Virus record (IMG/VR): IMGVR_UViG_3300045988_175656
Strand: one strand, 5' to 3'
DNA from: a virus
Length of the DNA: 64,000 bases
The position numbers and the translations under genes are program-made. Below the pieces are notes generated by a model. It saw only the letters and a program-made list of their open reading frames with translations. It had not been told where the DNA came from and did not search any database. Positions 35,985-54,851 of the stretch are shown in pieces. Numbering within the stretch: the first letter of the stretch is position 1; every line of letters begins with the position of its first letter.

Positions 35985-36209
35985 TTACTTATTTCCCACC
36001 ACTTCAATATATACATTGCATTTAGGATAGCATTTTTGTAACTTCCTTTGTGTTATTTCAGCCCTACTAAATGAATTATAATACTTTGGTGGGCGTGTGT
36101 CTGTATAAAACATGGTAGGTGGATTAAGGATAGGTTTATGTTTCCTATCCCACCTAACAAACACATAAGGAGTATAATTATAATTGACAAAAACCAAATA
36201 TTGTTTCAT
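35985..36209 (-). CDS. hypothetical protein
   Basis: ORF track. Confidence 0.6.
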   Translation of the reverse strand: MKQYLVFVNYNYTPYVFVRWDRKHKPILNPPTMFYTDTRPPKYYNSFSRAEITQRKLQKCYPKCNVYIEVVGNK

Positions 36210-36784
36210 ACTGCATAATATTTACCGTTTTCTAAAAATTCATATAAATTAGCTTCGCAAATTTCGTTTAAATCTTCTTCTGATATTTCATAAAAGAAAG
36301 CATATCCATAATTTTCAAATTCTTTACATTTAGCAAAATACCATGCTTTTACATTTTCTTCAACTTTTTGTAAAATTTGTTCATGTTTAGGATTTTCATA
36401 ATTATCCTCAATTTCTATACTAACTGTATGTGCATGGCAATAATGATAATCAAACTTTGTGAATTTAATTTTTGAAATATCGTCACCTGCAATTTCTTTT
36501 TGTCTCTTTGTCAAACCTTGTGTAAAGATTTTCCAAATACGTTCATCAATACCATAGGTAGGAATTTCACCATACATACAAAAGCCGTCTCCTTGACAAT
36601 AGTCCAAAGAGAAACTTACTTTTAAAGTTTCAATGCCATATTCAGACTTTAATTCTTCTAAACAATCTCTTTCAAATTCAGACGGTTCTAAATTATTAAG
36701 CCACCATTGTTTCACAACTTCTTTTGCTTCACTTGACAGTTCATTAAATTTGTAAACCTTAATTTCTTTAATTTCTGTTCTCAT
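36206..36784 (-). CDS. hypothetical protein
   Basis: ORF track, 192 aa. The N-terminal VYKFNELSSEAKE type is seen in plasmid and phage proteins, but I cannot name the family. Confidence 0.7.
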   Translation of the reverse strand: MRTEIKEIKVYKFNELSSEAKEVVKQWWLNNLEPSEFERDCLEELKSEYGIETLKVSFSLDYCQGDGFCMYGEIPTYGIDERIWKIFTQGLTKRQKEIAGDDISKIKFTKFDYHYCHAHTVSIEIEDNYENPKHEQILQKVEENVKAWYFAKCKEFENYGYAFFYEISEEDLNEICEANLYEFLENGKYYAV

Positions 36785-36974: not shown

Positions 36975-37030
36975 TACAACAAAGGTACGAAATAAATCCG
37001 TACCTTACAAATTATTATGGTTAAAAGATG

Positions 37031-37394: not shown

Positions 37395-37471
37395 ATTTTT
37401 AATTGTTATTTCTTATGATACAAAGGTAGGGAAATTTCTATTCCCTACCAAATATTTTATGTTAATAAGAA

Positions 37472-38191
37472 TTAATATTCTTCACTTGCTTTCATAATTC
37501 CTTCAAGAAGTGATATTTCCTTAATATCAAAAAGATAGTATTCGTCCTGTGTATCATACGAATAATCACAATTATTACATATTTGTCCTTTTGCGTTAAG
37601 ATAAATCATTGTATCAACATTAATATAATCTTCAAGTTCTTCAATACTAATTTCTTTGGTGTAGTCTAATGTTTTCCAACCGCCTAATTCATATCCTCTG
37701 CCCTCTGAAATGATATTACGCACATTATATTCATCATTTCTAAGTGAGAAGAAAGAAAGCATGGAAAGAAATTGAATACTTTCTTTTTGTTCTTTTGGGT
37801 ATGTGTGGTAACTATCATTTGATAATTGTATCATTGATAAACATTCATCTTTATAATTTTGATACATATACATTTCAATCAATAAATGTATAAATTCTAA
37901 TGATTGGCAAGATTTTCTACCATTAACAACTATGTAAAAATTACTTACAGATATTTTTAATCTCTTCAATTCCTCTAATATAAAACGTATTGCAGGAATA
38001 TTTAGAGTAGGTTCACCACCTGTAATTGTAAGGCTACCAATTGAACTAATATCTTGTAATGCTTTTGTAATATATGCTTTATGTATATTTCTTTTTTGTG
38101 CTTCACCTCTTAAACAATGCGCACATTTCATATTACATTTGCGTGTTACTTCAATTGCCAATTCATTTAAAATTAATTTCTTCTTTTCCAT
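37472..38191 (-). CDS. radical SAM enzyme (short, possible C-terminal twitch/SPASM-like remnant)
   Basis: CNMKCAHC (CxxxCxxC) at residues 19-26, within IEVTRKCNMKCAHCLRG. Also has the LTITGGEPTL SAM-binding motif and a C-terminal NAKGQICNNC. Confidence 0.8.
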   Translation of the reverse strand: MEKKKLILNELAIEVTRKCNMKCAHCLRGEAQKRNIHKAYITKALQDISSIGSLTITGGEPTLNIPAIRFILEELKRLKISVSNFYIVVNGRKSCQSLEFIHLLIEMYMYQNYKDECLSMIQLSNDSYHTYPKEQKESIQFLSMLSFFSLRNDEYNVRNIISEGRGYELGGWKTLDYTKEISIEELEDYINVDTMIYLNAKGQICNNCDYSYDTQDEYYLFDIKEISLLEGIMKASEEY

Positions 38192-38333
38192 AACTTATTA
38201 TCTTTAATTGTTTGATACAAAGGTATGGTTTTTATTTGAATTATGCAAGCATTTATCATATTATTTTGTGTTAATAAAAGTTAATAGATTATAGTTAAAA
38301 TTATATAAAATTAACAAAAATGCTACTGATATG

Positions 38334-38382
38334 TTGGAGACTATACTCTAATATTTTACTATTACCTATCATTTATTTCTGA
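38334..38382 (-). ncRNA. UAUAGUCUCC-element, copy 4
   Basis: Promoter TTTG(38419-38416)-20nt-TATCTTTG(38395-38388). RNA reads GGU-AAUA-GUAAAA-UAUU-AGAGUAUAGUCUCCAA. Confidence 0.6.
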
Positions 38383-38443
38383 TAATACAAAGATAAGGAT
38401 AATAAATGGAATTACCAAATTATTATCCTTATTAAATGTTAAT

Positions 38444-39881: not shown

Positions 39882-39910
39882 AATTTATCTAATTTTATTA
39901 TATAAATAGT

Positions 39911-39994
39911 AGCTCTGATGGGAGTCGAACCCACACGTCTATAAAGACCTCAGTGTTTGAGACTGATGCGTACTACCAATTTCGCCACAGAGCC
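39911..39994 (-). tRNA. tRNA-Leu (anticodon CAA), type II with long variable arm
   Basis: The minus sense folds as a cloverleaf: GGCTCTG-TG-GCG-AAATTGGTAGTA-CGC-A-TCAGT-CTCAAAC-ACTGA-GGTCTTTATAGACGT-GTGGG-TTCGACT-CCCAT-CAGAGCT. The anticodon CAA is at 39959-39957. The T-loop is TTCGACT. There is a 15-nt variable arm and no encoded CCA. Confidence 0.85.
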
Positions 39995-40086: not shown

Positions 40087-40096
40087 ATATTTTAGA

Positions 40097-40111
40097 TACT
40101 CAATTGAGTAC
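40097..40111 (-). promoter_or_regulatory. GTACTCAWWTGAGTA hairpin/palindrome, copy f
   Basis: Minus sense reads GTACTCAATTGAGTA, beginning 1 nt after the TAA of 40113..40562. Confidence 0.55.
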
Positions 40112-40112
40112 T

Positions 40113-40562: not shown

Positions 40563-40600
40563 AATCTAATACTTTTAAAATTGTTTTTAATATATTACCT

Positions 40601-40615
40601 AACTCATTTGAGTAC
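40601..40615 (-). promoter_or_regulatory. GTACTCAWWTGAGT hairpin, copy g (inside a 5' UTR)
   Basis: Minus sense reads GTACTCAAATGAGTT. It lies between the TACCTTTG promoter (about 40640) and the ATG at 40562, so it is transcribed. Confidence 0.55.
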
Positions 40616-40672
40616 GTCTATCTCTTATTTTGATATTACAAAGGTAAGAACTTTCTCTGACATATCCAAATT

Positions 40673-41167: not shown

Positions 41168-41821
41168 TTAACTTTTTAATGCTTGCTTTAACAGATATTT
41201 GTTAATGTAAGGAAATGTTTTGTTTAATTCCATTTCTTCCATAAAAAGTTTTAAAATATCATAATAAGTTTCATATTGTTTTGCGGCTTCTTTACAAGTG
41301 TCATTTATACCGTTAATAGCGTTTGTTGTGTACACATTTGAGTACATGATAACGCTTTTTACCTTGTTAAAGTTTTCTTCATCAAAATAATACACATCTT
41401 TTTCATTTGTTTGGTGTTTCACCTCAATAAATGAAATATCAAAACATGACATCAATTCAGTTAAAAAATAGCCACATCTTTCAAGTTTGATAGTACGCTT
41501 TTTACTATCAATTTTTTCAATGATGTTATAAAATCTATTTACCATATAAATTTCGGGATTGCAGATAGCAAATAACATCACATCAGGTATATTAATAACT
41601 TTTAACAAAGGCAAAGTCCTTTTCCATGTTGGTTCATTGTACATATAATTTACCACAGGGTGTATTTTTCTTAATTCAGATTGAAAACGGTTGTTAAACT
41701 CTTCATCTAAATTAATAGAATAGCCTAAACTTTTTGCATAGGCTTCAATACATTCTTTATCCATTATCATTTTGTTTGATAACTCTGATAAACTATTAAT
41801 TACTTCTTCTCGATTTTTCAT
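41168..41821 (-). CDS. hypothetical protein
   Basis: ORF track, 217 aa. It contains a near-copy of the hairpin motif (41339-41354, GTACTCAAATGTGTAC in sense) that encodes MYSNV. Confidence 0.7.
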   Translation of the reverse strand: MKNREEVINSLSELSNKMIMDKECIEAYAKSLGYSINLDEEFNNRFQSELRKIHPVVNYMYNEPTWKRTLPLLKVINIPDVMLFAICNPEIYMVNRFYNIIEKIDSKKRTIKLERCGYFLTELMSCFDISFIEVKHQTNEKDVYYFDEENFNKVKSVIMYSNVYTTNAINGINDTCKEAAKQYETYYDILKLFMEEMELNKTFPYINKYLLKQALKS

Positions 41822-42070
41822 AAACTTATATGTTTTAATTGTTTAGTGCAAATGTAGGGCATTTTTTTGAAACTACCAAATTTTAGACCTTTTTTTAACT
41901 TACTTTCACACATAATTCATTTTTAGTTAAATTCACATAAAGTATGTCTATTGTTAATAAATCTTAACAACAGTCTATCTCTACATAGGTGCGAAGTTAC
42001 AAAATACTTTTCATATAAGCAAGTGTTTTAACATTTTTTAGTGTTTATTAACTATTAATGTTAAAATATA

Positions 42071-42114
42071 TTGGAGACTATACTTTAGTATTTTACTACT
42101 ACCTTTTCTTTTTC
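42071..42114 (-). ncRNA. UAUAGUCUCC-element, copy 5
   Basis: -7 box TATCTTTG (42127-42120), with a weaker -33 (CTTG). RNA reads GGU-AGUA-GUAAAA-UACU-AAAGUAUAGUCUCCAA. Confidence 0.55.
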
Positions 42115-42312
42115 TATATCAAAGATAAGGGAAATAATTGATATATACAAGTGTTTAACAGAGATTAACGTAATGTATTTTTATATGGCTTATATCAATG
42201 CTAAAAATGTATTTTAATGTTAATGAATGTAATTTGCTTGCGTATGTCAATTATAAATCTTACATTTGCATATCAAAATTAAAGAAGTACTAACAATTAA
42301 AGATTTAAAGTT

Positions 42313-42603: not shown

Positions 42604-42867
42604 ATGGAAAATAGAGAAGTTAAAGATATTGCAATAATCGCAAATTTATTAGACGGAAAAGTTAAATTCCGTAAAATCGAATGGTCTCAAATATTAATGG
42701 GTAAACATGGAGAAAGTTTTAATGATTTGTACTTTATTGGGAAAAAACATGGAGTATATTTTTATACAAGTAGAGCGAGTTTAGATAGATTATGTTATCT
42801 TAACAATAAAGATATGCCTACTTATGTGGTTTGTGAAGAAAGTAAAAATGTTTTTAAAATAGAATAA
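42604..42867 (+). CDS. hypothetical protein
   Basis: ORF track. Confidence 0.65.
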   Translation: MENREVKDIAIIANLLDGKVKFRKIEWSQILMGKHGESFNDLYFIGKKHGVYFYTSRASLDRLCYLNNKDMPTYVVCEESKNVFKIE

Positions 42868-42918
42868 AAAAAAAATTAACTTGTTTTCAATTGCTATTGA
42901 TTTTAAATTAATACATAA

Positions 42919-43029
42919 TAGTTAGGGCTTGTGAAAGTCTTAACTATTTTTTTAATTTTTTAACTAAAAAAGTTAATATCTGTTGGAGACTATACTCTAT
43001 ATTATTACATATACCTTTTTATTTTTTCT
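42919..43029 (-). ncRNA. UAUAGUCUCC-element, copy 6 (stand-alone unit, antisense to the plus arm)
   Basis: Leftward promoter TTTG(43066-43063)-20nt-TACATTTG(43042-43035). RNA reads GG-UAUAU-GUAAUA-AUAUA-GAGUAUAGUCUCCAA (core 42983-43015). It runs into the 12-bp hairpin 42919-42946, which also terminates 42604..42867. Confidence 0.6.
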
Positions 43030-43240
43030 TTATACAAATGTAAGCATTATATTTGATATATGCAAATTATTATCTAATTATTTTCTCTAAATTAAGTTTT
43101 ATTAATACAAAAATTGTTTTGTGTTAATGAATAATAAAAGAAAGTGCAAATGTATTGTAGTCTCAAATAAAGTTCTTATATTTGCAGTGTTGAAAGACAA
43201 AAGAATAAATTATATAATCAAACATTTAAAAATTATAGTT

Positions 43241-43921
43241 ATGAAAGAAGTAAATTTTGTATTGTATTTTGGAGCAAACAGAGGTAAAAATGCTTTGAAT
43301 AATCCTCAAACTGTGACAACTCATGCTAATTGTGATGCGGTTACACGTGAAAAAGAAAATCTTTTTAAAGCGATTTATGGCTACTTAGTTGAATTGTCTG
43401 ATATGGGTATCAGTTATGCAGATACGTTTTATCATCCTTCGCAAACTTGTTTTACAGTGTATCAAACAACCTTAGTAGAACCTACTGTTTATGTGAAATC
43501 TTTGGAAAATAACCAAGTAGGAATTTTTGTCAAAGGTTTGGAAAGAAAAACCGATATTGAGTTTAACTTTTTGCTTGATATGGAAATACATATCACCACA
43601 TTAAGAAACCTTTCAAAAGCGGTTTATTTTGCTCTTTTACACGCAAAGAAAGATGCTGCAAATAAAGCTCGTGAAGAAGAAGAAAAACGTCAAAAAGAAG
43701 AAAAAGAACTTTTTGAAATGTTTGTAAATAATTCTCCTTACATACAAATGAACTTGAAAAGTCGTGATGAATTGTTATCACAGATTATTCAGTTGGAACA
43801 ACTTTTGAACAAAAGAGACAGAGAGTTTTTAACTAATTTAAGTGAACACATGGAAAAGTTAAGCGGAAAAGAAACAGCGGAACGTTTTGTTAAGTTCATG
43901 CAAGAAAAGCTAAATTCATAA
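43241..43921 (+). CDS. hypothetical protein with E/K-rich coiled coil
   Basis: Start trimmed to MKEVNFVLYF (ATG 43241), which follows a TATATTTG box near 43170. Contains KAREEEEKRQKEEKE. Confidence 0.65.
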   Translation: MKEVNFVLYFGANRGKNALNNPQTVTTHANCDAVTREKENLFKAIYGYLVELSDMGISYADTFYHPSQTCFTVYQTTLVEPTVYVKSLENNQVGIFVKGLERKTDIEFNFLLDMEIHITTLRNLSKAVYFALLHAKKDAANKAREEEEKRQKEEKELFEMFVNNSPYIQMNLKSRDELLSQIIQLEQLLNKRDREFLTNLSEHMEKLSGKETAERFVKFMQEKLNS

Positions 43922-43943
43922 CTTTAAATATTGTTAATTAATT

Positions 43944-43985
43944 AAAGAAAGTCTGCTATCTGTTTGGATATGTCAGACTTTCTTT
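43944..43985 (+). terminator. 12-bp hairpin overlapping the next promoter spacer
   Basis: AAAGAAAGTCTG-N18-CAGACTTTCTTT. The 3' arm runs into TATCTTTG (43987-43994). Confidence 0.6.
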
Positions 43986-44000
43986 TTATCTTTGTATATC

Positions 44001-44096
44001 GAAAATAAAAAAGTAATAGTAAAATATTAGAGTATAGTCTCCAACAGGTAAAATATAAAACTGTTAATGAATGTGAATTTTTTAATAATCATTAAC
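44001..44096 (+). ncRNA. UAUAGUCUCC-element, copy 7
   Basis: RNA reads AGU-AAUA-GUAAAA-UAUU-AGAGUAUAGUCUCCAA (to 44046), followed by the hairpin GTTAATGA/TCATTAAC (44063-44096). Confidence 0.6.
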
Positions 44097-44176
44097 ACAA
44101 AAATATATCAAAAAATTAGGTTCGTATTGAAATAAGCCTTATCTTTGCACATATCAAAATTAAAAACAATAAAGTT

Positions 44177-44428
44177 ATGAAAACAATTCAAGAAGTATTA
44201 AATATTATTGCTACATCTGATTTAATAATGTATGCAGTTAATTACATTGATTTGATAGATGAAAATGTACCTAATACGAATGCAAGTATCGTTTTAAATT
44301 TTAGGTATAGTAATATAAGTTTGTTATTAATGAATGAAATTTTGAATATCATTCTTACAAACGGTTTATCTTATAATATGGATATTGATAATAAGATAAT
44401 GTATATATACTATAAAATAGAAAAATAA
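44177..44428 (+). CDS. hypothetical protein
   Basis: ORF track. Confidence 0.6.
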   Translation: MKTIQEVLNIIATSDLIMYAVNYIDLIDENVPNTNASIVLNFRYSNISLLLMNEILNIILTNGLSYNMDIDNKIMYIYYKIEK

Positions 44429-44554
44429 ATTAATTAATATTCTTTAACACAAAATATTTGGTGGCTATAAAAAAAGTCCTTATCTTTGTAACATCAAAAT
44501 AAGAGAAACCAAAACAATTAAAAATATAAATTTAACAATTAAAAATTTGAAGTT

Positions 44555-45469
44555 ATGAAAAAGAATGAACTTAAAGTTAGCGTGATTATCGAAAATGGTA
44601 TGGTAAGAAAAGAAATGGTAGAAATCTTTTACAGTGAAGATTATGATTTGTTAAACAATTTCGATGGCAACCGTTTAGGTAGTGACGAACAAAAAGAAAG
44701 CGGAAATTATTCTGCAAACGAAATAAAGGCTTTTGATAGTCGTGTTAATAAACTTGTTGCATCTATGCAAAAACGTATTGCAGACGGAAAAGAGGGTTTT
44801 GACAAAAATTTTCCTATACTTGTTGCAGTCATAGACGGTAAAAAAGTAAACATAGACGGACAAGGTAGAAAAGCTGCTTGTAAAAGGTTAGGTATCGGTT
44901 TTTGGTATCGTATATTAGACCAAAAGTTTGATACAATGAAAGATTTGATTAATTATACTATCTCAATAAATACCACTGCATCAAGCTGGAAAATTACTGA
45001 CAAATATAAGGCTTGGGCGATTGCAAATGACCGCAAAGACTTGTTAGAAATTATGCTTGATTGTACAAAAAAATTTGACATTGCAGAAAATTTAACATTA
45101 ATGGTTCTGTTCAAAAATCAGAATGTTTGCAAAAAGAATAATTTCAACATTGACAATATTAAAATTAAAACATATACAGAACAAGCAAAAATCGACTTGT
45201 ACGAAATTTTGAATTTCAGACAAGAATTGATTAACGCAATAAAAGGTTTGAGAGATAGTGAAGGACACAAAGTAGCTATCAAGAAAGAAGAATGTTTGCA
45301 CGCTATTGTAAATTTTTATTGCCAAAATAGCAAACTTAATCGCACAATTGCGGTAAAATATGTGGCTGAATATTATCAAAAAAGCGATATGAAAATTTTT
45401 ACCGCCAATACTACATTATTTGAAAAATTTTTAAATCGCTGTGCGCTTAATCATGATGAAAAGATTTAA
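44555..45469 (+). CDS. ParB/Srx-like N-terminal domain protein
   Basis: FPILVAVIDGKKVNIDGQGRKAACKRLGIGFWYRIL fits the ParB-like nuclease-domain core (P..V....g...iDGqHR..A...LG). Confidence 0.55.
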   Translation: MKKNELKVSVIIENGMVRKEMVEIFYSEDYDLLNNFDGNRLGSDEQKESGNYSANEIKAFDSRVNKLVASMQKRIADGKEGFDKNFPILVAVIDGKKVNIDGQGRKAACKRLGIGFWYRILDQKFDTMKDLINYTISINTTASSWKITDKYKAWAIANDRKDLLEIMLDCTKKFDIAENLTLMVLFKNQNVCKKNNFNIDNIKIKTYTEQAKIDLYEILNFRQELINAIKGLRDSEGHKVAIKKEECLHAIVNFYCQNSKLNRTIAVKYVAEYYQKSDMKIFTANTTLFEKFLNRCALNHDEKI

Positions 45470-45498
45470 ACTTCATAACTTTAATTTTTGATTGAAAA

Positions 45499-45534
45499 AG
45501 GGAGTACTAATAAAAAAAGTACTTCCTTTTTTAC
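45499..45534 (+). terminator. intrinsic terminator after 44555..45469
   Basis: GGAGTACT-N9-AGTACTTCC hairpin, followed by TTTTTT. Confidence 0.6.
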
Positions 45535-45552
45535 ATTTATTAACACAAAATA

Positions 45553-45584
45553 TTTGGTTCGTATTGATAAAAGCATTATCTTTG
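45553..45584 (+). promoter_or_regulatory. Bacteroidota-type promoter
   Basis: TTAACACAAAATATTTGG motif, with TTTG (45553-45556), a 20 nt spacer and TATCTTTG (45577-45584). Confidence 0.6.
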
Positions 45585-45633
45585 TCATATCAAAATAAGA
45601 GATAATAAGTTTAACAATTTAAAAACTAAAGTT

Positions 45634-45828
45634 ATGAATAGAATTAAATTTTTTGGTAGTGTTGGTATGGTAATGTTTATCATGTGGTTGTGCTTTTGGA
45701 TGTTTGGCGGTTGGTATGTGAAAGGTAGTTTTGAAACATTCTCCTATATTTGGTTAGGTGTTTGTGTGGCTGTTTTAGTCGCTGTTAATAGCAAATTAAC
45801 TAAGATACATAAAGAGATAAGCAAATAA
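45634..45828 (+). CDS. small membrane protein
   Basis: Two hydrophobic helices. Confidence 0.6.
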   Translation: MNRIKFFGSVGMVMFIMWLCFWMFGGWYVKGSFETFSYIWLGVCVAVLVAVNSKLTKIHKEISK

Positions 45829-45884
45829 GTAGATAATTCAAGGTAGGGCAAATAAATAAGCCCTACCAATAAAATATAAAAGTT

Positions 45885-46235
45885 ATGAGTAAAAAATTCA
45901 AGTTATATGCAACAATAAAAGAAAATGTAGGCTATCAGTCTAATTTGAATAATAATAGAGACAGTTATAACAATGCGCTTTTCTTACTTCGTGGAAAAGA
46001 AATTGAGATAGAGACAGACTATTTGTTTCTTAATCAGTTAAACACTGCACCAATTAAAGATATTAGTAAGAACGGTTTAAGATTATATTTTAATGATATT
46101 AAGTCTTTAAGAATAGAAAACCGTACTTTTCGCACTATTAAAATGAGAGTGAAAAAGTTTTATAAAAGTGCTTGGGATGTTGATATTAAAGAACAACAAC
46201 TTAAAGGATATAAACTTTTATTAGGAATTAATTAA
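45885..46235 (+). CDS. hypothetical protein
   Basis: ORF track. Confidence 0.65.
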   Translation: MSKKFKLYATIKENVGYQSNLNNNRDSYNNALFLLRGKEIEIETDYLFLNQLNTAPIKDISKNGLRLYFNDIKSLRIENRTFRTIKMRVKKFYKSAWDVDIKEQQLKGYKLLLGIN

Positions 46236-46292
46236 TTCTTATTAACACAAAATATTTGGTAGGTATTGAAAAAATACCTACCTTTGTTGTGT

Positions 46293-46335
46293 AAGAAAAA
46301 AGTAGGGGTAATATTCTAAAGTATAGTCTCCAACA
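46293..46335 (+). ncRNA. UAUAGUCUCC-element, copy 8
   Basis: Promoter TTTG(46255-46258)-20nt hairpin spacer-TACCTTTG(46279-46286). RNA reads AGU-AGGG-GUAAUA-UUCU-AAAGUAUAGUCUCCAA. Confidence 0.6.
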
Positions 46336-46470
46336 GGTAAAATATAAAATTGTTAATAAATGCAAAAATTTTAATATTATTTAACATAAAAAAGTATTGA
46401 AATGTTTTGGTGTATCGAATATTATTCGTACATTTGCATATCGGAAATACAGAAATAAGTTATTAACCAT

Positions 46471-46486
46471 TGTTTCACGTGGAACA
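46471..46486 (+). promoter_or_regulatory. TGTTYCACGTGGAACA palindrome, copy 2
   Basis: TGTTTCACGTGGAACA within the leader, 17 nt before the ATG at 46504. Confidence 0.55.
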
Positions 46487-46503
46487 ATTAAAAATTTAAA
46501 GTT

Positions 46504-47034
46504 ATGGGTAATGTTTATTACATGGATAAAGAAACATTTGTTTTGAAAAGCAAACAACAAATTTTGGTTTATAATTACATGATTGAAGATTTAAAAAACA
46601 TTCTTCCAATTGTGCAAAAATTTGACCAAAGGTTTTTAACCAAAAGATTAACTACTGCAATAGAAAAAGTTTTGAAACATTGCATAGTTAGTTTACACGC
46701 TGATAAAATAAAAATCAGCATACAAGGAGAGTTAAGATACGTTAAAGGTGGTGGCTATATTGAATGGGACAGTTACGATATAGATTTAGATGTTAATAGA
46801 CTTGGTTGGTTGTTAAATTCTGAAAAAAGTATTGAAAACATTCAATCGACTATTAATTACTTTGAAAAACAGATTAACGAATACCAACTATGTATCACTA
46901 ACTATGATGAATTTGTTAATAAACGTTTAGAAATTGAAAAACAAATTGAAGAATACCAAAAACTTGTGCCTTATTGTATGCGAACAGGTTTTAGTGTATA
47001 TGGTACTAAATATTATATAGATGAAATAAAATAA
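46504..47034 (+). CDS. hypothetical protein
   Basis: ORF track, 176 aa. Confidence 0.7.
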   Translation: MGNVYYMDKETFVLKSKQQILVYNYMIEDLKNILPIVQKFDQRFLTKRLTTAIEKVLKHCIVSLHADKIKISIQGELRYVKGGGYIEWDSYDIDLDVNRLGWLLNSEKSIENIQSTINYFEKQINEYQLCITNYDEFVNKRLEIEKQIEEYQKLVPYCMRTGFSVYGTKYYIDEIK

Positions 47035-47045
47035 AAGTTAAAATA

Positions 47046-47077
47046 TTTGCAAAGGTAGATTTTATTTTCTACCTTTG
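47046..47077 (+). promoter_or_regulatory. promoter with 11-bp hairpin in the spacer
   Basis: TTTG(47046-47049)-20nt-TACCTTTG(47070-47077). GCAAAGGTAGA and TCTACCTTTGC form the arms. Confidence 0.6.
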
Positions 47078-47123
47078 CATAAACAATAAAAAACTAAAGT
47101 TTTATTTTAAAGCGTTTTAAAAC

Positions 47124-47507
47124 ATGAAAAAATTATTATTTAATACATTATCAAGACAAACAAAAGAGCTTGAAAAAACGGCTAAAAATGCTATTTTAGC
47201 CTTATTAAATGAGATACCAAACAAAACATATCAGACTGATAAAATAGACGAAGAAAGAAATATAACAACCTATGATAATGAAAAATTTGCTTTTGTAGGC
47301 TGTTATATTGATAAAACAAAAGGCACATTTACATATAATCTACATGATGGGTTAAAGTTATTAGGCTATAAAATAATAAATGATAATGATATGATAAGCG
47401 AAATATTATACAATAAACTGTATGAAATAGAGCTTTTTAATATTGATAATATTCAACTATTAAACGTTATAAAATACATCAATGAGATAGAATTTTCTGA
47501 GGATTAA
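47124..47507 (+). CDS. hypothetical protein
   Basis: ORF track. Confidence 0.65.
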   Translation: MKKLLFNTLSRQTKELEKTAKNAILALLNEIPNKTYQTDKIDEERNITTYDNEKFAFVGCYIDKTKGTFTYNLHDGLKLLGYKIINDNDMISEILYNKLYEIELFNIDNIQLLNVIKYINEIEFSED

Positions 47508-47526
47508 GATTTATTAACTCAAATAA

Positions 47527-47558
47527 TTTGCAAGGTACGGATGTTCTTCGTACCTTTG
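47527..47558 (+). promoter_or_regulatory. promoter with hairpin spacer
   Basis: TTTG(47527-47530)-20nt (GGTACGgatgttctTCGTACC)-TACCTTTG(47551-47558). Confidence 0.6.
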
Positions 47559-47600
47559 TTGTATCAAAATTAAAGTACTAACAATTAAAAAATTAAAGTT

Positions 47601-47765
47601 ATGAAAAAGTTAAAATCTATTGAGCTTTACAGAAATTTTCCAGTTATAGACCAAAAACAAAATTCTAATTTTATTTTAAAATTATTTCCTTTTTTCTTTC
47701 AGAAATTAAAAAAAACAATGTGGATAGAAATACCTTTTGTTGGCGTTAAAATAGTAATTAATTAA
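47601..47765 (+). CDS. 54-aa hypothetical protein
   Basis: Unlisted ORF MKKLKSIELYRNFPVIDQKQNSNFILKLFPFFFQKLKKTMWIEIPFVGVKIVIN, with a full canonical promoter and the GTACTAACAATTAAAAAATTAAAGTT leader. Confidence 0.45.
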   Translation: MKKLKSIELYRNFPVIDQKQNSNFILKLFPFFFQKLKKTMWIEIPFVGVKIVIN

Positions 47766-47793
47766 TATTATTAACGAATAATAACATAGAATA

Positions 47794-47825
47794 TTTGGTA
47801 GGGAACGGAAATTTCCCTACCTTTG
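47794..47825 (+). promoter_or_regulatory. promoter with hairpin spacer
   Basis: TTTG(47794-47797)-20nt (GTAGGGAAcggaaaTTTCCCTAC)-TACCTTTG(47818-47825). Confidence 0.6.
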
Positions 47826-47868
47826 TATTATAAGAAATAAGAAGTACTAACAATTAAATTTTAAAGTT

Positions 47869-48084
47869 ATGGGATGTTTAAATGTTAAAAAGTATAACGC
47901 TATGCAAGCGGAACGGGAACAAGAATTTTTAAACAAGTTAGACCGTACAGGATTAACAGAAACAGATATTAAAAAAATGTGTGAAAGCTACTTTCCACGT
48001 ATTAACAAAAATTATGGCTTTGTTACGTTTGATAACAGAACTTGTGCAACTGAAATTCATTGGCACAAAAGAAAACCTTATTAA
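47869..48084 (+). CDS. hypothetical protein
   Basis: ORF track. Confidence 0.6.
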   Translation: MGCLNVKKYNAMQAEREQEFLNKLDRTGLTETDIKKMCESYFPRINKNYGFVTFDNRTCATEIHWHKRKPY

Positions 48085-48141
48085 CAACAATTAACTCAAA
48101 TAATTTGGTGGGGAAAGAAATTTCCCCTATCTTTGTAATAC

Positions 48142-48191
48142 AGAAAAGGAAACAAAGGTATAAGTAACATTATAGAGTATAGTCTCCAACA
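48142..48191 (+). ncRNA. UAUAGUCUCC-element, copy 9
   Basis: -7 box TATCTTTG (48128-48135). RNA reads GG-UAUAA-GUAACA-UUAUA-GAGUAUAGUCUCCAA. Confidence 0.6.
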
Positions 48192-48339
48192 TATTTAATA
48201 TAAAATAGTTAAAAAATACTAATTAAATTAATAATTTTTAATACAAAATAATTTGTAAAATACTTGCATAATTGAAATATTATCTATATCTTTGTATTAT
48301 CAAAATTAAGAAGATTACTAACAATTAAATTTTAAAGTT

Positions 48340-48624
48340 ATGGCAAATTTCATTTTTCTTAAAAACGACTCTTATAATAGTCCCGTAGTTGCAAAATTGG
48401 CTGTTATTGAAATAGAAGGTGACTATGATTGGTGGCACATTAAAACACGCCCTATCAAGGCTACTAAACGAAATATAGAGCTTTTAAAACTCTATGCAAG
48501 AGAGAACACAACAGATTATATGTGTTGTGAATACGATTGCACAGGTAGCACTAAAAGAACATATAAAGTAAAAGTTAAAAAAGGTAAATGTTGGTTAATT
48601 GAATATGGTAGTGTAGATTGCTAA
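48340..48624 (+). CDS. hypothetical protein
   Basis: ORF track. Confidence 0.65.
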   Translation: MANFIFLKNDSYNSPVVAKLAVIEIEGDYDWWHIKTRPIKATKRNIELLKLYARENTTDYMCCEYDCTGSTKRTYKVKVKKGKCWLIEYGSVDC

Positions 48625-48700
48625 CATTTATTAACATAAATAATTTGGTAGGTATCAGAGAAATACCTACCTTTGTTTCAAACAATTAAAAAGAATAGTT

Positions 48701-48976
48701 ATGGAAGAAAAAATTAAACAATTTGTTAAACAGCTAAATGAAAAATATCCCGAATATGTAACATCATACACACAAGGGAAAAAGTTTTACAAAATATGGA
48801 GAACATTTGGCGTGCAGAAATGTATCTATTGTTTTGTAGATATGGACGGAAATATTTACAAAGCTGCAAGTATTAACGCACCCGCAAAACATATTAGAGG
48901 GCACATTTCAGAACCTTTTAAAGACAATTGTTGCGGACGTTACGGAATTAAGTATTTAAAAGGTCCTAACTTCTAA
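48701..48976 (+). CDS. hypothetical protein
   Basis: ORF track. The FVDMDGNIYKAASINAPAKHIRG motif is of a type common in phage hypothetical proteins. Confidence 0.65.
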   Translation: MEEKIKQFVKQLNEKYPEYVTSYTQGKKFYKIWRTFGVQKCIYCFVDMDGNIYKAASINAPAKHIRGHISEPFKDNCCGRYGIKYLKGPNF

Positions 48977-48985
48977 TTAAGTTTA

Positions 48986-49101
48986 TTAACATTTGGTGAA
49001 GTGTAGTAGCCAAATGTTAATTTTTTTAATATTTTTTAACTAAAAAAATATAGATGTGTTGGAGACTATACTCTAAGATATTACTCTTACCTTTTTTATT
49101 A
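48986..49101 (-). ncRNA. UAUAGUCUCC-element, copy 10 (stand-alone unit, antisense to the plus arm)
   Basis: Leftward promoter TTTG(49138-49135)-20nt-TATCTTTG(49114-49107). RNA reads GGU-AAGA-GUAAUA-UCUU-AGAGUAUAGUCUCCAA (core from 49059). It ends at the shared 11-bp hairpin TTAACATTTGG/CCAAATGTTAA (48986-49020). Confidence 0.6.
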
Positions 49102-49273
49102 CATTACAAAGATAAGAATAATTTCTTTAAGTACCAAATATTTGATTAATTTTTATTGTTCATTAACACAATATAGTTTTAAAGTTAATTTTGTGTTAAA
49201 GATAGAAAAATACTTGTTTGGTATTGATATAATTCATACTTTTGTGCATATCAAAATTAAAAGCAATAAAGTT

Positions 49274-49546
49274 ATGAAAGCAAAAAATTACATTCCGCAA
49301 ATTTCTGTTTATTACAGTGAGAGAAACTATAATGACTATAATAACGCTATACAACAAGCTATAAAGCGTTTTAAAGAGTTTTATTCCCGTTTTGATAAAA
49401 GACTACTCACAACAAAGAAAAAAGTTAATGTGAACATAAAAGGGCACATTTTAAATGTGAATATTGACTTTAATAAAGTACATTATTCACAATGTTATGA
49501 GATAGTAAACTATAACGAAATAAAAGGGCTACAAATCAATTATTAA
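49274..49546 (+). CDS. hypothetical protein
   Basis: Start trimmed to MKAKNYIPQ (ATG 49274), which follows the ATCAAAATTAAAAGCAATAAAGTT leader. Confidence 0.6.
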   Translation: MKAKNYIPQISVYYSERNYNDYNNAIQQAIKRFKEFYSRFDKRLLTTKKKVNVNIKGHILNVNIDFNKVHYSQCYEIVNYNEIKGLQINY

Positions 49547-49550
49547 AGAT

Positions 49551-49799
49551 ATGGCACGAAATATAAGTCTTTCAACCGTAGAGAAAATTTTTAATAATTT
49601 AGGTGATGTTAAATTAGAACCTAAAGTTTATAAACAAATTGAAAAAGAATTACGATTTGAGGGGAGAGATAAAAGGTTTGATTTATTTGTTGAGGCTGGC
49701 ACAAATAAATCTATGCTCTTTAAGTTTATGAAAAAAAGATACTATGTTTACTATGATTACAGTATTAATAAGTGGAAAGCTGAATATAATATAAGATAA
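49551..49799 (+). CDS. hypothetical protein
   Basis: ORF track. Confidence 0.6.
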   Translation: MARNISLSTVEKIFNNLGDVKLEPKVYKQIEKELRFEGRDKRFDLFVEAGTNKSMLFKFMKKRYYVYYDYSINKWKAEYNIR

Positions 49800-49917
49800 A
49801 ATAATACTATGTTAATTTATAGTTAAATATAGGAAAATATTTGTTTGGTATTAATTTAATTCTTATCTTTGTACTATCAAAATTAAGGAAATTATTAACA
49901 ATTAAAAAATAAAAGTT

Positions 49918-50424
49918 ATGGCAATATTCGGAAATTTCGTAGGTAAAAAAGATTTAGAATTAACAAACGAAGAAAAAGAAATGTTTATGAATTTCTTCAA
50001 AATGAAACTTTTTAACTATCATAATTGCAATTTTGAAAAGGTATTAACAATTCAAAATGTAAAAGAAGAGTGTTATACAACTTTTACAGATTTTAAATCA
50101 TATTACTTTATTTTCAAGCCAAAAGAAAGTTTAAATGGGAGAAACGTTAAAAGAGATAGAGTTATTGATTTTTCGGGTATTTCTTTTATAATTCGCAAAG
50201 AAAGCGGTTTTTTAGAGATAAAAAATAAAGAAGAAAATATAAATACGCCCGAATTTCAATATTCTTTAAATATCCTTATTCAAGGAAAACAAATAAGGTA
50301 TAAATGTAGAAATATAGAAAGTATTTCTTTAAAAAATTCGTTTCAATTTGGTACTGAATTAAGCGATTTCGATTTTTCAGCTACTTTCTATGACTTATAT
50401 AGAACACTTTATGGCTTATATTAA
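49918..50424 (+). CDS. hypothetical protein
   Basis: ORF track, 168 aa. Confidence 0.7.
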   Translation: MAIFGNFVGKKDLELTNEEKEMFMNFFKMKLFNYHNCNFEKVLTIQNVKEECYTTFTDFKSYYFIFKPKESLNGRNVKRDRVIDFSGISFIIRKESGFLEIKNKEENINTPEFQYSLNILIQGKQIRYKCRNIESISLKNSFQFGTELSDFDFSATFYDLYRTLYGLY

Positions 50425-50441
50425 TTAAAAATAAAATAGTT

Positions 50442-50636
50442 ATGAAAGAAAAATATTTTATAGTTGTAAACGAAACAAAGAAAGAAATATACTTTGCGTC
50501 TAAAAATCAATTCAGAGCACAACATTTTACAAAATTCATTTACCAAAAATATGATAAACATGTTTCCTGTGTGCCACGTTATTTGACGCAAAAAGAAATT
50601 GAAATGTATAAAGATATAATCAGTAAGAGAGGTTAA
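50442..50636 (+). CDS. hypothetical protein
   Basis: ORF track. Confidence 0.6.
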   Translation: MKEKYFIVVNETKKEIYFASKNQFRAQHFTKFIYQKYDKHVSCVPRYLTQKEIEMYKDIISKRG

Positions 50637-50646
50637 AATAAATAAA

Positions 50647-50761
50647 ATGTTAAGAATTTGACTGTTCTTAACATTTTTTAACTTATTTTTATATATAAAA
50701 AATAAAGCATAACGGAGACTATACTTTAGAATATTACTTCTACTTTTTCCCCCTTTTGGAA
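50647..50761 (-). ncRNA. UAUAGUCUCC-element, copy 11 (stand-alone unit of about 115 nt)
   Basis: Leftward promoter TTTG(50798-50795)-20nt-TATCTTTG(50774-50767). RNA reads AGU-AGAA-GUAAUA-UUCU-AAAGUAUAGUCUCCGU (core from 50713). A bidirectional terminator hairpin, ATGTTAAGAA/TTCTTAACAT, lies at 50647-50674. Confidence 0.6.
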
Positions 50762-50931
50762 CACTACAAAGATAAGAAGAATATTTGAAACTAACAAATT
50801 TATTCCAATGATTAACATTTAATTAACTCTTAAAACGTATTGTGTTAATCAATATTAATAAATCACGTTTTATTTGGTAGATATAAAATTAATTCATATA
50901 TTTGCAATATCAAAATTAAAACAAAGAAGTT

Positions 50932-51402
50932 ATGGAAAAGAATTTAGAGTATTACAGAGAACAATGTCAAGAAATTGCAAACATGATTGCAAATGAAGTT
51001 ACGGACGCAAAAAGTGTTAAAGTTGATTGTGGCGGCTTTTGTCCTTACTTGTGCTTTATTAGAATAGACGCACTTGACAAAAAAGATTATATAAATAATA
51101 TATCAAATAATAGTATCTTTATAGATATTAAAATAGACTTTCAAGAAAATAAATTTGAACTGTTTAGAGATGGACACATTTACCTATCACCAAAGGATAA
51201 AAAAACACCACAATTTAAATATTTAGCTATGCGTGGTATGATTAATATTGCAGAAGAAAAAGGAGTTAAAAAAATGCGTAAAACAAAGCATAAAGACAAT
51301 AAAACAACCGCTAATAAAATAGCTCTTTACTTCAATGAAGTTATGAAAGCTGTAAAAGAATATACAGGCGGTTATCCTTACAGACAAGGAATCGAAGAGT
51401 AA
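50932..51402 (+). CDS. hypothetical protein
   Basis: ORF track, 156 aa. Confidence 0.7.
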   Translation: MEKNLEYYREQCQEIANMIANEVTDAKSVKVDCGGFCPYLCFIRIDALDKKDYINNISNNSIFIDIKIDFQENKFELFRDGHIYLSPKDKKTPQFKYLAMRGMINIAEEKGVKKMRKTKHKDNKTTANKIALYFNEVMKAVKEYTGGYPYRQGIEE

Positions 51403-51483
51403 TTAACATTTATTAATACAAAAAATTTGGTAGGAATGAAATAATTTCCTACCTTTGTATCAAACAATTAAAGATAACAAGTT

Positions 51484-51702
51484 ATGGATAAAGAAAAAAT
51501 TATTAATAGTATTTGTATAGCTTGCAGAGCTACACAAGGCGGTACTTTAAAGTTTGGTACAGGCGGTTTTGTAGATTTTTCTGTAAGTTGGGATTATCAA
51601 TGTAATTTTGACATTTTTAATCTTAAAACAAAAAAACATCACTTTTGTAGCACTTTAGGCACAGCCGTTGAAATTGTTGAAAAATTATTAACAGAAATAT
51701 AA
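51484..51702 (+). CDS. hypothetical protein
   Basis: ORF track. Confidence 0.6.
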   Translation: MDKEKIINSICIACRATQGGTLKFGTGGFVDFSVSWDYQCNFDIFNLKTKKHHFCSTLGTAVEIVEKLLTEI

Positions 51703-51721
51703 CATTTATTAACTCTAAAAA

Positions 51722-51753
51722 TTTGGTGATATGAGATAAAAGTCGTACATTTG
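51722..51753 (+). promoter_or_regulatory. Bacteroidota-type promoter driving an ORF-less unit
   Basis: TTTG(51722-51725)-20nt-TACATTTG(51746-51753). Confidence 0.6.
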
Positions 51754-51759
51754 TAATAA

Positions 51760-52176
51760 AGAAATACAACTAACAGAAAAAGAGATTAAGTATTAATTTT
51801 AATAATGTCTAAAAATGGAAACAAATAAGCCACCGCCCTAAAAAGGTTATTTAAATTTGATAATATAAGATAGAATAATTTAATAGCTACGAAAACTAAC
51901 AAGGTACGCAAGTTTAAAGAGTAAAAAGTTTTAGAACGTACTGCATTAAGCGAAAAAGCTATGCCACCACAGTATTAAGTTTATAACATTATAATATATA
52001 GAGTAATTTAATTTATATTTAATTTTAACTTTCCGCTGTTTGCGGACTAAAAACATAAGTATGCACTTAATTAGAGATAAGACCATATAAAAATTATATG
52101 TAATATAGAATGAATTTATAGATTAAGAAAATAAGGCAAAAGCTCTGATAATACCGTCATTTATCAGAGCTTTTTT
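51760..52176 (+). ncRNA. candidate long ncRNA of about 415 nt
   Basis: A canonical promoter precedes it and no ORF exceeds about 9 codons. It has locally GC-richer patches and nested helices: ATAGCT(51883-88)/AGCTAT(51957-62) encloses GTACG(51904-08)/CGTAC(51937-41). A CCGC-TGTT-GCGG hairpin is also present. It ends at the strong terminator AGCTCTGATAA-N8-TTATCAGAGCT plus T6 (52141-52176). Confidence 0.45.
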
Positions 52177-52258
52177 AATTACAGTTTTTAACATTTTTTA
52201 TAAGTACGTGACGGAGACTATACTTTAAAGTTTTAACCTTACCTCTTTGTTTTTCTTA
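52135..52258 (-). ncRNA. UAUAGUCUCC-element, copy 12 (stand-alone unit of about 120 nt)
   Basis: Leftward promoter TTTG(52295-52292)-20nt-TATCTTTG(52271-52264). RNA reads GGU-AAGG-UUAAAA-CUUU-AAAGUAUAGUCUCCGU (core from 52212). It converges on the same terminator hairpin, 52141-52170. Confidence 0.6.
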
Positions 52259-52428
52259 CACTACAAAGATAAGGATAATAATTCAATCTACCAAACATTA
52301 TTTCAGTTTTAACATTACTTTAACACAAAATACTTAATATGTTAATATTGTGTTAAAGATATGATATTACTTGCATATATGAAAAATAACATATATATTT
52401 GCAATATCAAAATTAAAGTAATAAAGTT

Positions 52429-54251: not shown

Positions 54252-54338
54252 CACAAAATATTTGGAACATATCAAAAAAATACCTATCTTTGTAATATCA
54301 AAATTAAAGAAGTTACTAACAATTAAAAATTTAAAGTT

Positions 54339-54545: not shown

Positions 54546-54561
54546 TGTTCCACGTGGAACA
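54546..54561 (+). promoter_or_regulatory. TGTTCCACGTGGAACA palindrome, copy 3 (perfect)
   Basis: Perfect 16-nt palindrome 7 nt after the stop of 54339..54539, abutting the C-tract island. Confidence 0.6.
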
Positions 54562-54640
54562 CCCCCTACATGGGGGCTACCCCCGTAACCCCCCACTCCG
54601 TTCCCCCTACCTTGAAGGGGTGGGTAAAACAGGGAACGGT
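54562..54640. other. C/G-tract island in otherwise AT-rich DNA
   Basis: Tracts are C5 (54562-66), G5 (54572-76), C5 (54580-84), C6 (54589-94), C5 (54603-07), G4 (54617-20), G3 (54622-24) and G3 (54632-34). It also contains the CCCCC-TACAT-GGGGG hairpin and the pair CCGTTCCC...GGGAACGG. Confidence 0.8.
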
Positions 54641-54851
54641 CTGGAAAATGAAATTTTTTTGGTCCAGAAAATTTTTATTTTTCGTAAATGCCTAAAAATC
54701 TAATTTTAAATTTCACATTTTTTAAAATAAAAAATGGCTTTTCAAAAAAATTTTCCAGAAAATTTTTTAGCTTTTTAAAAAAGGTATTATTTTATTTTTG
54801 CTAATTTATAAAAAAAAACGTATATTTGCAAAAAAAAAATGAGATTATATT

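Follow-up and report, generated by a model that had tools for sequence, protein, structure and literature searches.

The 64,000-nt stretch of viral DNA analysed here (IMG/VR record IMGVR_UViG_3300045988_175656; hereafter, the window) contains 12 copies of a 41-nt element that comprises a hairpin of 5 bp, with the loop G-U-R-A-N-A, and, after it, an invariant 12-mer, AGUAUAGUCUCC. Judged from its sequence, the element appears to be a new, sharply defined RNA motif that has its own promoter and is widespread in the jumbo phages of gut and rumen Bacteroidales. The strand bias of its stem pairs is direct evidence of a function as RNA, in the orientation that had been assumed in a preliminary description of the window. 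We see about an even chance that the copies constitute an autonomous family of small-RNA (sRNA) genes that acts in trans, most likely through a protein.

The word GGAGACTATACT (reverse complement, AGTATAGTCTCC) occurs exactly 12 times in the window, always between positions 34091 and 52224; when up to two mismatches are allowed, there are 14 matches, a count attained by none of 100 shuffled sequences. A covariance model recovers the same 12 sites with scores of 52.6–65.2 bits, and because the runner-up site scores 12.5 bits, the set of copies is complete and sharply bounded. The window is AT-rich, and its coding open reading frames (ORFs) form two diverging arms, a minus-strand arm spanning 1 to 41821 and a plus-strand arm that begins at 42313. 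All 12 copies are found near the divergence point (34.0–52.3 kb), i.e. in the first 8–10 kb of both arms. Read as AGTATAGTCTCC, copies 1–5 lie on the minus strand and copies 7–9 on the plus strand, that is, in the sense of their own arms, and copies 6, 10, 11, and 12 (cores at 42985, 49061, 50714, and 52213, respectively) lie on the minus strand within the plus arm. The preliminary description had already placed these four antisense copies, each with its own promoter, at the correct coordinates and in the correct orientation.

The element is laid out as (G)G, a 5' stem strand UANNN, the loop G-U-R-A-N-A, a 3' stem strand N'N'N'UA, a purine (R), and AGUAUAGUCUCC, and the bases that flank the loop change complementarily across copies. 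Among 227 unique copies of the family, the consensus reads AGUAUA(G/a/u)U(C/u)UCC for the core and (G/a/u)-U-R-A-N-A for the loop, and a semi-conserved AAYA follows AGUAUAGUCUCC. When 37 unique copies that had not been selected for pairing were aligned, 185 of the 185 stem cells paired canonically, and four of the five pairs showed compensatory changes. The covariation score of this alignment was 0.716, compared with 0.167 after shuffling, and none of 500 shuffles attained it; in a control in which the partner columns were slid by 1–3 positions, 29–50% of the cells paired. A larger set of 140 diverse copies had been pre-filtered for intact stems, so that its 100% pairing, but not its covariation, is by construction; here, covariation extends to each of the five pairs, with U-A closing the stem in 96 copies and C-G in 44. 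Before this filtering, the core sites with at most one mismatch included 293 with five of five stem pairs and 10 with four of five. The 217 unique copies linked to a promoter contain 1034 Watson-Crick pairs, 49 G·U pairs, 1 A·C pair, and 1 other pair, and this tolerance of G·U but not of A·C shows that selection acts on the helix only on the strand transcribed from the upstream promoter (P1).

The 5-bp hairpin was the only helix obtained by a mutual-information scan from -45 to +65 and by RNAalifold on 145 representatives. In the predicted ensemble, the stem is paired, and the unpaired probabilities of the loop and the core would be 0.77 and 0.54, respectively. A pseudoknot between the loop and the sequence after the core was rejected, as it shows no covariation and A-C is as frequent as G-C at the key pair, and a small ORF in the element was rejected, no start codon being conserved across copies. 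The idea that the 18–20 nt between the core and a downstream GTTAA word (described below) serve as a guide or spacer was also discarded: this stretch is partly conserved (AAYAYAU...), common to paralogues, and of low complexity. No antisense target was found on either strand of the 64-kb window, where GGAGAC occurs only once outside the elements. Complementarity to, or mimicry of, rRNA was rejected for E. coli rRNA, the only rRNA compared, since the best seed duplexes on the rrn operon were at chance level, and the covariance model had no match in this E. coli operon, including the 3' end of the 16S rRNA. Because the loop and the tail are conserved, the stem covaries, and no complementary site is present in the window, the target is more likely to be a protein than an mRNA.

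In IMG/VR, each of four contigs of 215–380 kb from a single sample carries the motif approximately 10–12 times, and L021, a more distantly related contig of 41.9 kb, carries it three times. A metagenome scan by conserved positions listed at least 120 matches, from human gut assemblies and from other metagenome records, several of which we take, from the record names, to be rumen samples; among the matches listed were contigs of up to 398 kb and a 12.6-kb contig with eight copies. A scan of one genome per species for 185,579 bacterial and archaeal species identified only eight loci, mostly on short phage-like contigs binned into Paludibacteraceae and Muribaculaceae metagenome-assembled genomes (MAGs), and no CRISPR-like array. 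The presence of phage-like contigs in Bacteroidales MAGs, together with the promoter type, points to Bacteroidales hosts. Searches against Rfam 15 yielded only tRNA-Leu matches (whole window at the gathering threshold and 33.5–55 kb at E ≤ 5), no paper containing the 12-mer was found in a literature search that covered its DNA and RNA spellings on both strands, and megablast of the 33–53 kb region against the INPHARED phages gave no match. In one related locus (L009, approximately 5930–6040), a copy located between the flanks of window copy 8 carries the hairpin and tail of another copy type, with a tail like that of copy 10, and this exchange of segments among paralogous copies points to gene conversion among the units.

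Nearly every small ORF of the window has a Bacteroidetes-type promoter, in which TTTG is located approximately 24 nt upstream of TAnnTTTG, and the TAnnTTTG consensus is that of sigma-ABfr (PMC7366714). Upstream of every copy in the window, there is a TTG(-33)/TAnnTTTG(-7) promoter ending 33–42 nt before the core, and a strict TAnnTTTG box at -7 ends 29–59 nt upstream of the core in 217 of the 227 unique copies (96%). The spacers between the -33 and -7 boxes in the window contain 21 terminator-like palindromes, compared with 3.9 expected; such palindrome-bearing promoters, a class that includes P1 as well as the gene promoters, are composite terminator/promoters resembling the PeSL (promoter-early stem-loop) modules of T4-like phages. 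The spacer palindrome has the form GGTAGG...CCTACC followed by TTTG (e.g. at 46258–46282, 47797–47821, 37425–37449, and 34457–34481).

The orientation independence of the copies had been taken to mean that the element is a gene in its own right, an argument that is supported by our analysis and strengthened by the covariation, the element's own promoter, equal conservation in both orientations, tandem arrays, and retention of a second promoter (P2) before the downstream gene. Among 195 unique copies with sufficient flanking sequence, 134 were co-oriented with the adjoining gene, 33 were convergent with it, and 28 were ambiguous; the downstream ATG of the co-oriented copies lies at a median of 167 nt past the core start, and the stop codon of the opposing ORF of the convergent copies lies at a median of 103 nt from the core start. 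The exact core is present in 116/134 co-oriented and 24/30 convergent copies, an intact stem in 134/134 and 29/30, the GTTAA box in 108/134 and 23/30, and the -7 box of P1 in 132/134 and 27/30, respectively. Because both classes conserve the motif equally, purifying selection is independent of a downstream sense gene, and this equal conservation is the strongest argument for an autonomous function. In 101 of 111 co-oriented units, a strict P2 box lies past the core and ahead of the ATG, and six more units have this box with one mismatch; since P2 is thus kept in approximately 96% of these units, the downstream gene is independent of P1. Tandem P1-element-P1-element arrays, in which each element has its own P1, are present in four related loci (L021, L090, L139, and L141). 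A link in cis to one gene family was rejected, as identical gene families were found with and without an adjoining unit. Homologues of any single protein of the window were present in at most 16 of the fetched loci, and the RNA motif is invariant; the neighbouring genes are hypervariable. Because the motif remains unchanged while its neighbours lose recognizable homology, a conserved molecular partner is indicated. An invertible promoter was considered and rejected: close relatives keep the orientation of orthologous copies, and no inverted variants of such copies were seen among them.

The four antisense units had been described as sharing bidirectional terminators with the converging plus-strand genes. 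Geometrically this is correct: each unit reaches a hairpin, the far end of which lies 65–79 nt beyond the core start, and the units are of a uniform short length, 112–121 nt if transcription starts, as we infer, 6–7 nt past the -7 box. A function in both directions is convincing only at copy 12 and perhaps at copy 11. All four hairpins are built as plus-strand terminators, with 5–8 U residues in the 10-nt tail. The hairpin of gene 42604–42867 (42917–42948, copy 6) has a predicted energy of -14.9 kcal/mol and a U8 tail on the plus strand, compared with -5.1 kcal/mol, two A·C pairs, and no U run on the minus strand, where it is weak because two G·U pairs turn into A·C. That of gene 48701–48976 (48982–49022, copy 10) has -13.6 kcal/mol and a U-rich tail on the plus strand and -11.6 kcal/mol followed by CUUAAUUAGA, a poor U tract, on the minus strand; that of gene 50442–50636 (50649–50674, copy 11) has -9.3 kcal/mol on the plus strand and -5.3 kcal/mol followed by the U-rich AUUUUAUUUA on the minus strand. 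The hairpin at copy 12 (52137–52173) is the only convincing two-way terminator, with -16.3 kcal/mol on the plus strand, -15.3 kcal/mol followed by UUUUGCCUUAUUUUC on the minus strand, and both an A tract and a U tract. A stem with both tracts is thus found at copy 12, in weak form at copy 11, and not at copies 6 and 10. Across the family, a hairpin followed by U residues in the direction of the element was identified in 8 of the 33 convergent units. Hairpins of -8 kcal/mol or lower within +35 to +135 are present in 83% of the convergent units, compared with 4% of the co-oriented units, and because the sequence is A-rich before and U-poor after the hairpins of the convergent units, these hairpins are the terminators of the opposing genes. 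The module itself lacks a terminator. So do many genes of this phage, and 75 of the 124 intergenic sRNAs of B. thetaiotaomicron have no intrinsic terminator (PMC7366714); the missing terminator is therefore weak evidence.

The word GTTAA is located at a distance of exactly 32 nt from the start of the core in 158 of 217 copies, and the same holds for 11 of the 12 copies in the window. Minor GTTAA peaks are present at +42/43 and +52/53, TTAAC peaks at +49/50, +60/61, and +70/71, and further TTAAC words 37, 48, and 58 nt upstream of the -7 box of P2; in the window, TGTTAA occurs 235 times, compared with 134 expected. The phasing of approximately 10 nt suggests that these words may be DNA-level sites for a protein.

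In the reading that we favour, each copy would be an autonomous transcription unit occupying a gene-cassette slot in the early region of the phage, where a host-type sigma-ABfr promoter would drive a non-coding RNA. The functional part would lie within the first 60–80 nt or so and would comprise an A-rich leader of 10–20 nt, GG, the 5-bp G-U-R-A-N-A hairpin, a purine, AGUAUAGUCUCC, and AAYA, with the invariant AGUAUAGUCUCC probably remaining largely single-stranded. The twelve genes would fire early and jointly yield one abundant RNA species that would act in trans as a decoy, sponge, or cofactor for a conserved host or phage protein. Convergent copies would stop at the opposing gene's terminator hairpin or run into it, and co-oriented copies would be processed, be halted by a factor, or extend into the following cassette, which has its own promoter. 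Several points weigh against this reading. The orientation of the copies is biased toward the sense of the arm (134:33, approximately 4:1), and their clustering at the start of both arms also suits a cis site that loads a factor. Since the co-oriented units lack a terminator, the RNA may be the 5' end of a longer transcript. The GTTAA word fixed at +32 and the phasing around it point to a DNA-level component, which a purely trans-acting RNA would not need. Finally, the start sites and ends of the RNA, its transcription, its action in trans, and the kind of partner it has are deduced from sequence, and any partner protein or target RNA would be putative.

The known RNAs closest in kind to the element are FopS and GibS (PMC11697453; PMC7366714). 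FopS comprises 12–15 paralogous sigma-ABfr-driven sRNAs per Bacteroides genome, and a FopS-like sequence in a phage has also been noted (PMC11697453). The element resembles these RNAs in its sigma-ABfr promoter, its copy number (12 in the window and approximately 10–12 per related 215–380 kb contig), its short non-coding nature, a single-stranded conserved stretch near the 5' end, and the Bacteroidales lineage. However, the 5' start of FopS/GibS, where the conserved R1 seed lies, GUGUUUUUCAUAGUAUUAG (taken from the T7 primers of the authors), is unrelated to the element, and the 8-mers of the element core are absent from the supplements of the FopS paper (PMC11697453). The element has no Rfam match; a FopS model is said by its authors to have been deposited, its presence in Rfam 15 being unconfirmed. 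Furthermore, FopS lacks a 5' hairpin, finishes with a Rho-independent terminator, and targets susC mRNAs by pairing in their start regions. The element, by contrast, carries a covarying 5' hairpin, is without its own terminator, and was found on phage contigs and on no bacterial chromosome scanned.

More specifically, and only tentatively, we propose that the element is a host-takeover RNA, i.e. an abundant early species, produced by numerous strong host-type promoters, that captures a conserved Bacteroidales component or is an obligatory cofactor of a phage protein. The component could be an RNA-binding defence protein, a translation or RNA-decay factor, or RNA polymerase. The window encodes a 160-aa protein (26108–26587, minus strand) with a type II KH domain at residues 89–149, the nearest relative of which is the KH domain of uS3 (E = 2e-9, PDB chains); from its domain content, this protein is a possible RNA-binding partner of the element, and a scan of viral contigs found a homologue in a near-identical genome only.

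Rather unlikely, in our view, is a cis-acting co-transcriptional site comparable with nut, ops, or a hairpin-dependent pause, in which the nascent hairpin and 12-mer, within approximately 45 nt of the transcription start site, would pause RNA polymerase or load an elongation factor. Read-through of downstream promoters and terminators that contain hairpins would thereby be changed, and GTTAA would be a DNA-bound partner or roadblock. A put/nut-like antitermination role had been put forward in the preliminary description, and it fares unevenly. Its anatomy is in its favour: like nut sites and rrn leaders, the element has a variable 5-bp hairpin with a GNRA-like loop and a linear element of approximately 12 nt, located tens of nucleotides past an early promoter, and the order of hairpin and then linear element is that of rrn leaders. 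By general analogy, the 5-bp stem, GNRA-like loop, and single-stranded 12-mer could parallel boxB plus boxA or the 12-nt ops element. With ops/RfaH-type and other pause sites, where RNA polymerase pauses and a NusG-family factor is recruited, the comparison is one of geometry alone, namely a conserved 12-nt element after a hairpin, the base of which lies approximately 12–13 nt upstream of the core end, as would be expected of a hairpin-stabilized pause. The absence of a terminator from the co-oriented units, their 4:1 excess over convergent units, the confinement of the units to the first 8–10 kb of both arms, the excess of palindromes in the downstream promoter spacers (21 compared with 3.9), and GTTAA at exactly +32 with its phasing of approximately 10 nt all agree with a site in cis, and a nut-like placement upstream of genes is found in 134 of the 195 family members and 8 of the 12 window copies. 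The 33 convergent members are not so placed, however, and 18% (30/164) of the classifiable copies face a converging gene, have no sense gene to serve, and are equally conserved; P2 is kept in approximately 96% of the co-oriented units, and tandem P1-element pairs exist.

Details of the known sites also differ from the element. Its loop has six nucleotides (GNRA plus 2), compared with five in the boxB of nut, which an N protein recognizes, and there are 12 copies instead of 2, a fifth of them facing converging genes, with downstream genes that keep their promoters. The boxA consensus is CGCUCUUUA / GCUCUUUAACAA, to which the invariant sequence AGUAUAGUCUCC does not conform. The put site of HK022 consists of approximately 70 nt with two conserved stem-loops that act on RNA polymerase without a protein, whereas the element has a single covarying helix. 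A Pfam sweep of the 134 ORFs of the window, which covers 64 kb of approximately 220 kb, recognized no N-, Q-, or NusG-like protein.

The autonomous RNA gene that we favour has also to be weighed against an element of DNA, which we consider improbable: a mobile or recombinogenic PeSL-like promoter cassette, an operator or protein-binding site, or a hairpin in single-stranded DNA on which a nuclease or transposase would act, with transcription being incidental. Mosaic breakpoints relative to related genomes recur at promoters and units (37033, 37407, 38444, 34450, 44103, 46287, 47603, and 49023), P1 belongs to the palindrome-bearing promoter class, paralogues swap segments (as in the L009 copy), and the GTTAA/TTAAC words are phased at approximately 10 nt, all of which would suit such an element. 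PeSLs of T4-like phages (PMC2839356; PMC4122927) are likewise repeated early-promoter modules among small, fast-evolving ORFs in a hyperplastic region, and the promoters of the window, including P1, resemble them in carrying terminator-like palindromes and in having breakpoints at the modules. However, a PeSL unit is a promoter plus terminator flanking ORFs, whereas the payload of the element is a transcribed hairpin and 12-mer past the start site. The breakpoints at 44103, 46287, 49023, 37033, and 38444 lie at or next to units and promoters, and those at 37407, 34450, and 47603 lie at ordinary gene promoters; because breakpoints are equally frequent at gene promoters, it is the promoter that serves as substrate for recombination, rather than the hairpin and 12-mer. 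The 49:1 excess of G·U over A·C, which indicates selection on the P1-transcribed strand only, the presence of a promoter at a variable distance upstream in 96% of copies, and the constant orientation of orthologous copies among close relatives also argue against an element of DNA.

A role in replication, with transcripts that form R-loops, prime synthesis, or activate an origin on entering AT-rich DNA near an iteron-like GTTAA block, is very improbable. Copy 1 is indeed transcribed straight into the GTTAA/TTAAC block at 33242–34185, which shares the word CAGCACACAGTTT with a block in L021, and AT-rich DNA with GTTAA words follows every unit. Twelve dispersed copies, mostly located right before a gene promoter, are nevertheless unlikely to be origins, and the hairpin and 12-mer have no tie to priming. 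The block at 33242–34185 is dense in GTTAA/TTAAC and contains CACAGCACACAGTTTG near the end of its GTTAA-rich part; the similar block of L021 (4100–4480) contains GAACAGCACACAGTTT. The block in the window may serve as an origin of replication or as a regulatory hub, or may mark a genome end. Least probable of all is that the element belongs to the RNA anti-CRISPRs (Racrs) or mimics some other host RNA and would titrate Cas or another RNA-binding machine: although the element, a promoter-driven hairpin with a conserved tail, resembles solitary repeat units and, like Racrs, is a small phage-encoded, repeat-like hairpin RNA of a kind thought to occupy a host protein (PMC10651486), and although its many copies lie in an early region encoding anti-restriction-type proteins, e.g. 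a SAM lyase, no CRISPR repeat with the conserved positions and no CRISPR-like array was found in the 185,579 species genomes, none of the metagenome matches listed was such an array (the closest copies are spaced approximately 150 nt apart, each with its own promoter), neither the E. coli rrn operon nor Rfam gave a match, and the stem varies freely within one phage, which is unexpected for a mimic of one repeat.

Eight copies had been described as tandem P1-element-P2-gene arrangements, which is accurate for copies 2, 3, 4, 7, 8, and 9, where the -7 box of P2 lies 81–122 nt past the core start, and inaccurate for copies 1 and 5. Copy 1 (34066–34175, minus strand; 59.4 bits) has the -33 TTG at 34173–34175, the -7 box at 34145–34152, the hairpin at 34104–34119, the core at 34091–34102, and GTTAA at 34066–34070; it enters the GTTAA-rich non-coding block at 33242–34185 (approximately 940 nt), with no P2 or gene nearby and no gene for approximately 850 nt. 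Copy 5 (42048–42150, minus strand; 60.2 bits), the first unit of the minus arm, has the -7 box at 42120–42127, the hairpin at 42086–42101, the core at 42073–42084, and GTTAA at 42048–42052 and is followed by approximately 200 non-coding nt with only a degenerate -7 box before a promoter at 41849–41856 and the gene 41821..41168. This non-coding region (41860–42060, minus strand), in which the degenerate -7 box reads TAACTTCG, is conserved in two related loci (L011 and L024) and may be another small transcript.

Three co-oriented units with P2 are located on the minus strand. Copy 2 (35846–35952; 54.2 bits), with the -7 box at 35922–35929, the hairpin at 35884–35899, the core at 35871–35882, and GTTAA at 35846–35850, is followed by P2 boxes at 35794–35801 and 35766–35773 and then by a gene ending at 35435. 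Copy 3 (36909–37010; 63.6 bits) has these features at 36980–36987, 36947–36962, 36934–36945, and 36909–36913, respectively, and precedes a P2 -7 box at 36829–36836 and the gene 36784..36206. In copy 4 (38311–38418; 57.8 bits), they are found at 38388–38395, 38349–38364, 38336–38347, and 38311–38315, upstream of a P2 -7 box at 38218–38225 and the radical-SAM gene 38191..37472. The other three are on the plus strand. Copy 7 (43964–44067; 57.1 bits) contains the -7 box at 43987–43994, the hairpin at 44014–44029, the core at 44031–44042, and GTTAA at 44063–44067, with a P2 -7 box at 44140–44147 and the gene 44177–44428 downstream. The corresponding positions are 46279–46286, 46303–46318, 46320–46331, and 46352–46356 for copy 8 (46256–46356; 52.6 bits), which is followed by a P2 -7 box at 46429–46436 and the gene 46504–47034, and 48128–48135, 48159–48174, 48176–48187, and 48208–48212 for copy 9 (48105–48212; 58.9 bits), which is followed by a P2 -7 box at 48287–48294 and the gene 48340–48624.

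The four convergent copies, all on the minus strand, stand alone. Copy 6 (42917–43065; 56.2 bits), with the -7 box at 43035–43042, the hairpin at 42998–43013, the core at 42985–42996, and GTTAA at 42960–42964, runs into the terminator hairpin at 42917–42948. Copy 10 (48982–49137; 65.2 bits), for which the same features are located at 49107–49114, 49074–49089, 49061–49072, and 49036–49040, runs into the hairpin at 48982–49022, just past the stop codon of gene 48701–48976. Copy 11 (50649–50797; 53.1 bits) has its -7 box at 50767–50774, its hairpin at 50727–50742, its core at 50714–50725, and GTTAA at 50678–50682, an offset of +43 instead of +32, and runs into the hairpin at 50649–50674 beyond gene 50442–50636. 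Copy 12 (52137–52294; 57.5 bits), with the -7 box at 52264–52271, the hairpin at 52226–52241, the core at 52213–52224, and GTTAA at 52188–52192, reaches the symmetric A-tract/stem/U-tract hairpin at 52137–52173, which also ends a non-coding plus-strand unit starting from the promoter at 51746. This plus-strand unit lies in an ORF-free gap of 726 nt (51703–52428), conserved in relatives, in which transcription would run from a good promoter (-7 box at 51746) to the two-way terminator; the 377-nt non-coding RNA candidate at 51760–52136 was not more structured than shuffled sequences (z = +0.75) and had no Rfam match.

A conserved 5' leader, ...ACTAACAATTAAA...AAAGTTATG, is present downstream of most gene promoters of the window, and the leader sequence ...gtACTAACAATTAAAaatttAAAGTTATG is found in nearly every gene, e.g. 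at 42270–42312, 47560–47600, and 54295–54338. Hosts of the Bacteroidales lineage make little use of Shine-Dalgarno pairing, and the leader would act as a translation-initiation region specific to the phage. Intergenic palindromes of the GTACTCAAATGAGTAC type are found repeatedly, at approximately 32270–32295, 40095–40112, and 40600–40620 and in L021 at approximately 4005–4020 and 4557–4575. Genes of the early region encode a SAM lyase of the anti-restriction type (39159–39881), a protein with a GmrSD_N domain (11933–12790), a radical-SAM protein (37472–38191), and an RNase H-like protein (16254–16871), all on the minus strand, as is the gene for tRNA-Leu(CAA) (39909–39994). At 54550–54650, there is an island of 100 nt with approximately 60% GC (CCCCCTACATGGGGGCTACCCCCGTAACCCCCC...) in a genome of approximately 25% GC, located immediately upstream of an ORF of 625 aa that contains an HNH_3 domain (54852–56729); the island may be a mobile element or an intron-like insertion.

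The motif provides a handle for pull-downs, reporters, and knock-outs, and its covariance model doubles as a metagenome marker for this group of jumbo phages. The takeover of gut Bacteroidales hosts by phages is little understood, and we know of no structured non-coding RNA described in gut Bacteroidales phages. Action in cis would make the element the first defined antitermination- or pause-type signal of the Bacteroidota RNA polymerase. Action in trans would place it among the early RNAs of phages as a new kind, a decoy or cofactor, and if it serves in host takeover, it would represent a class of phage non-coding RNA that has not yet been described and that is conserved in gut and rumen jumbo phages.

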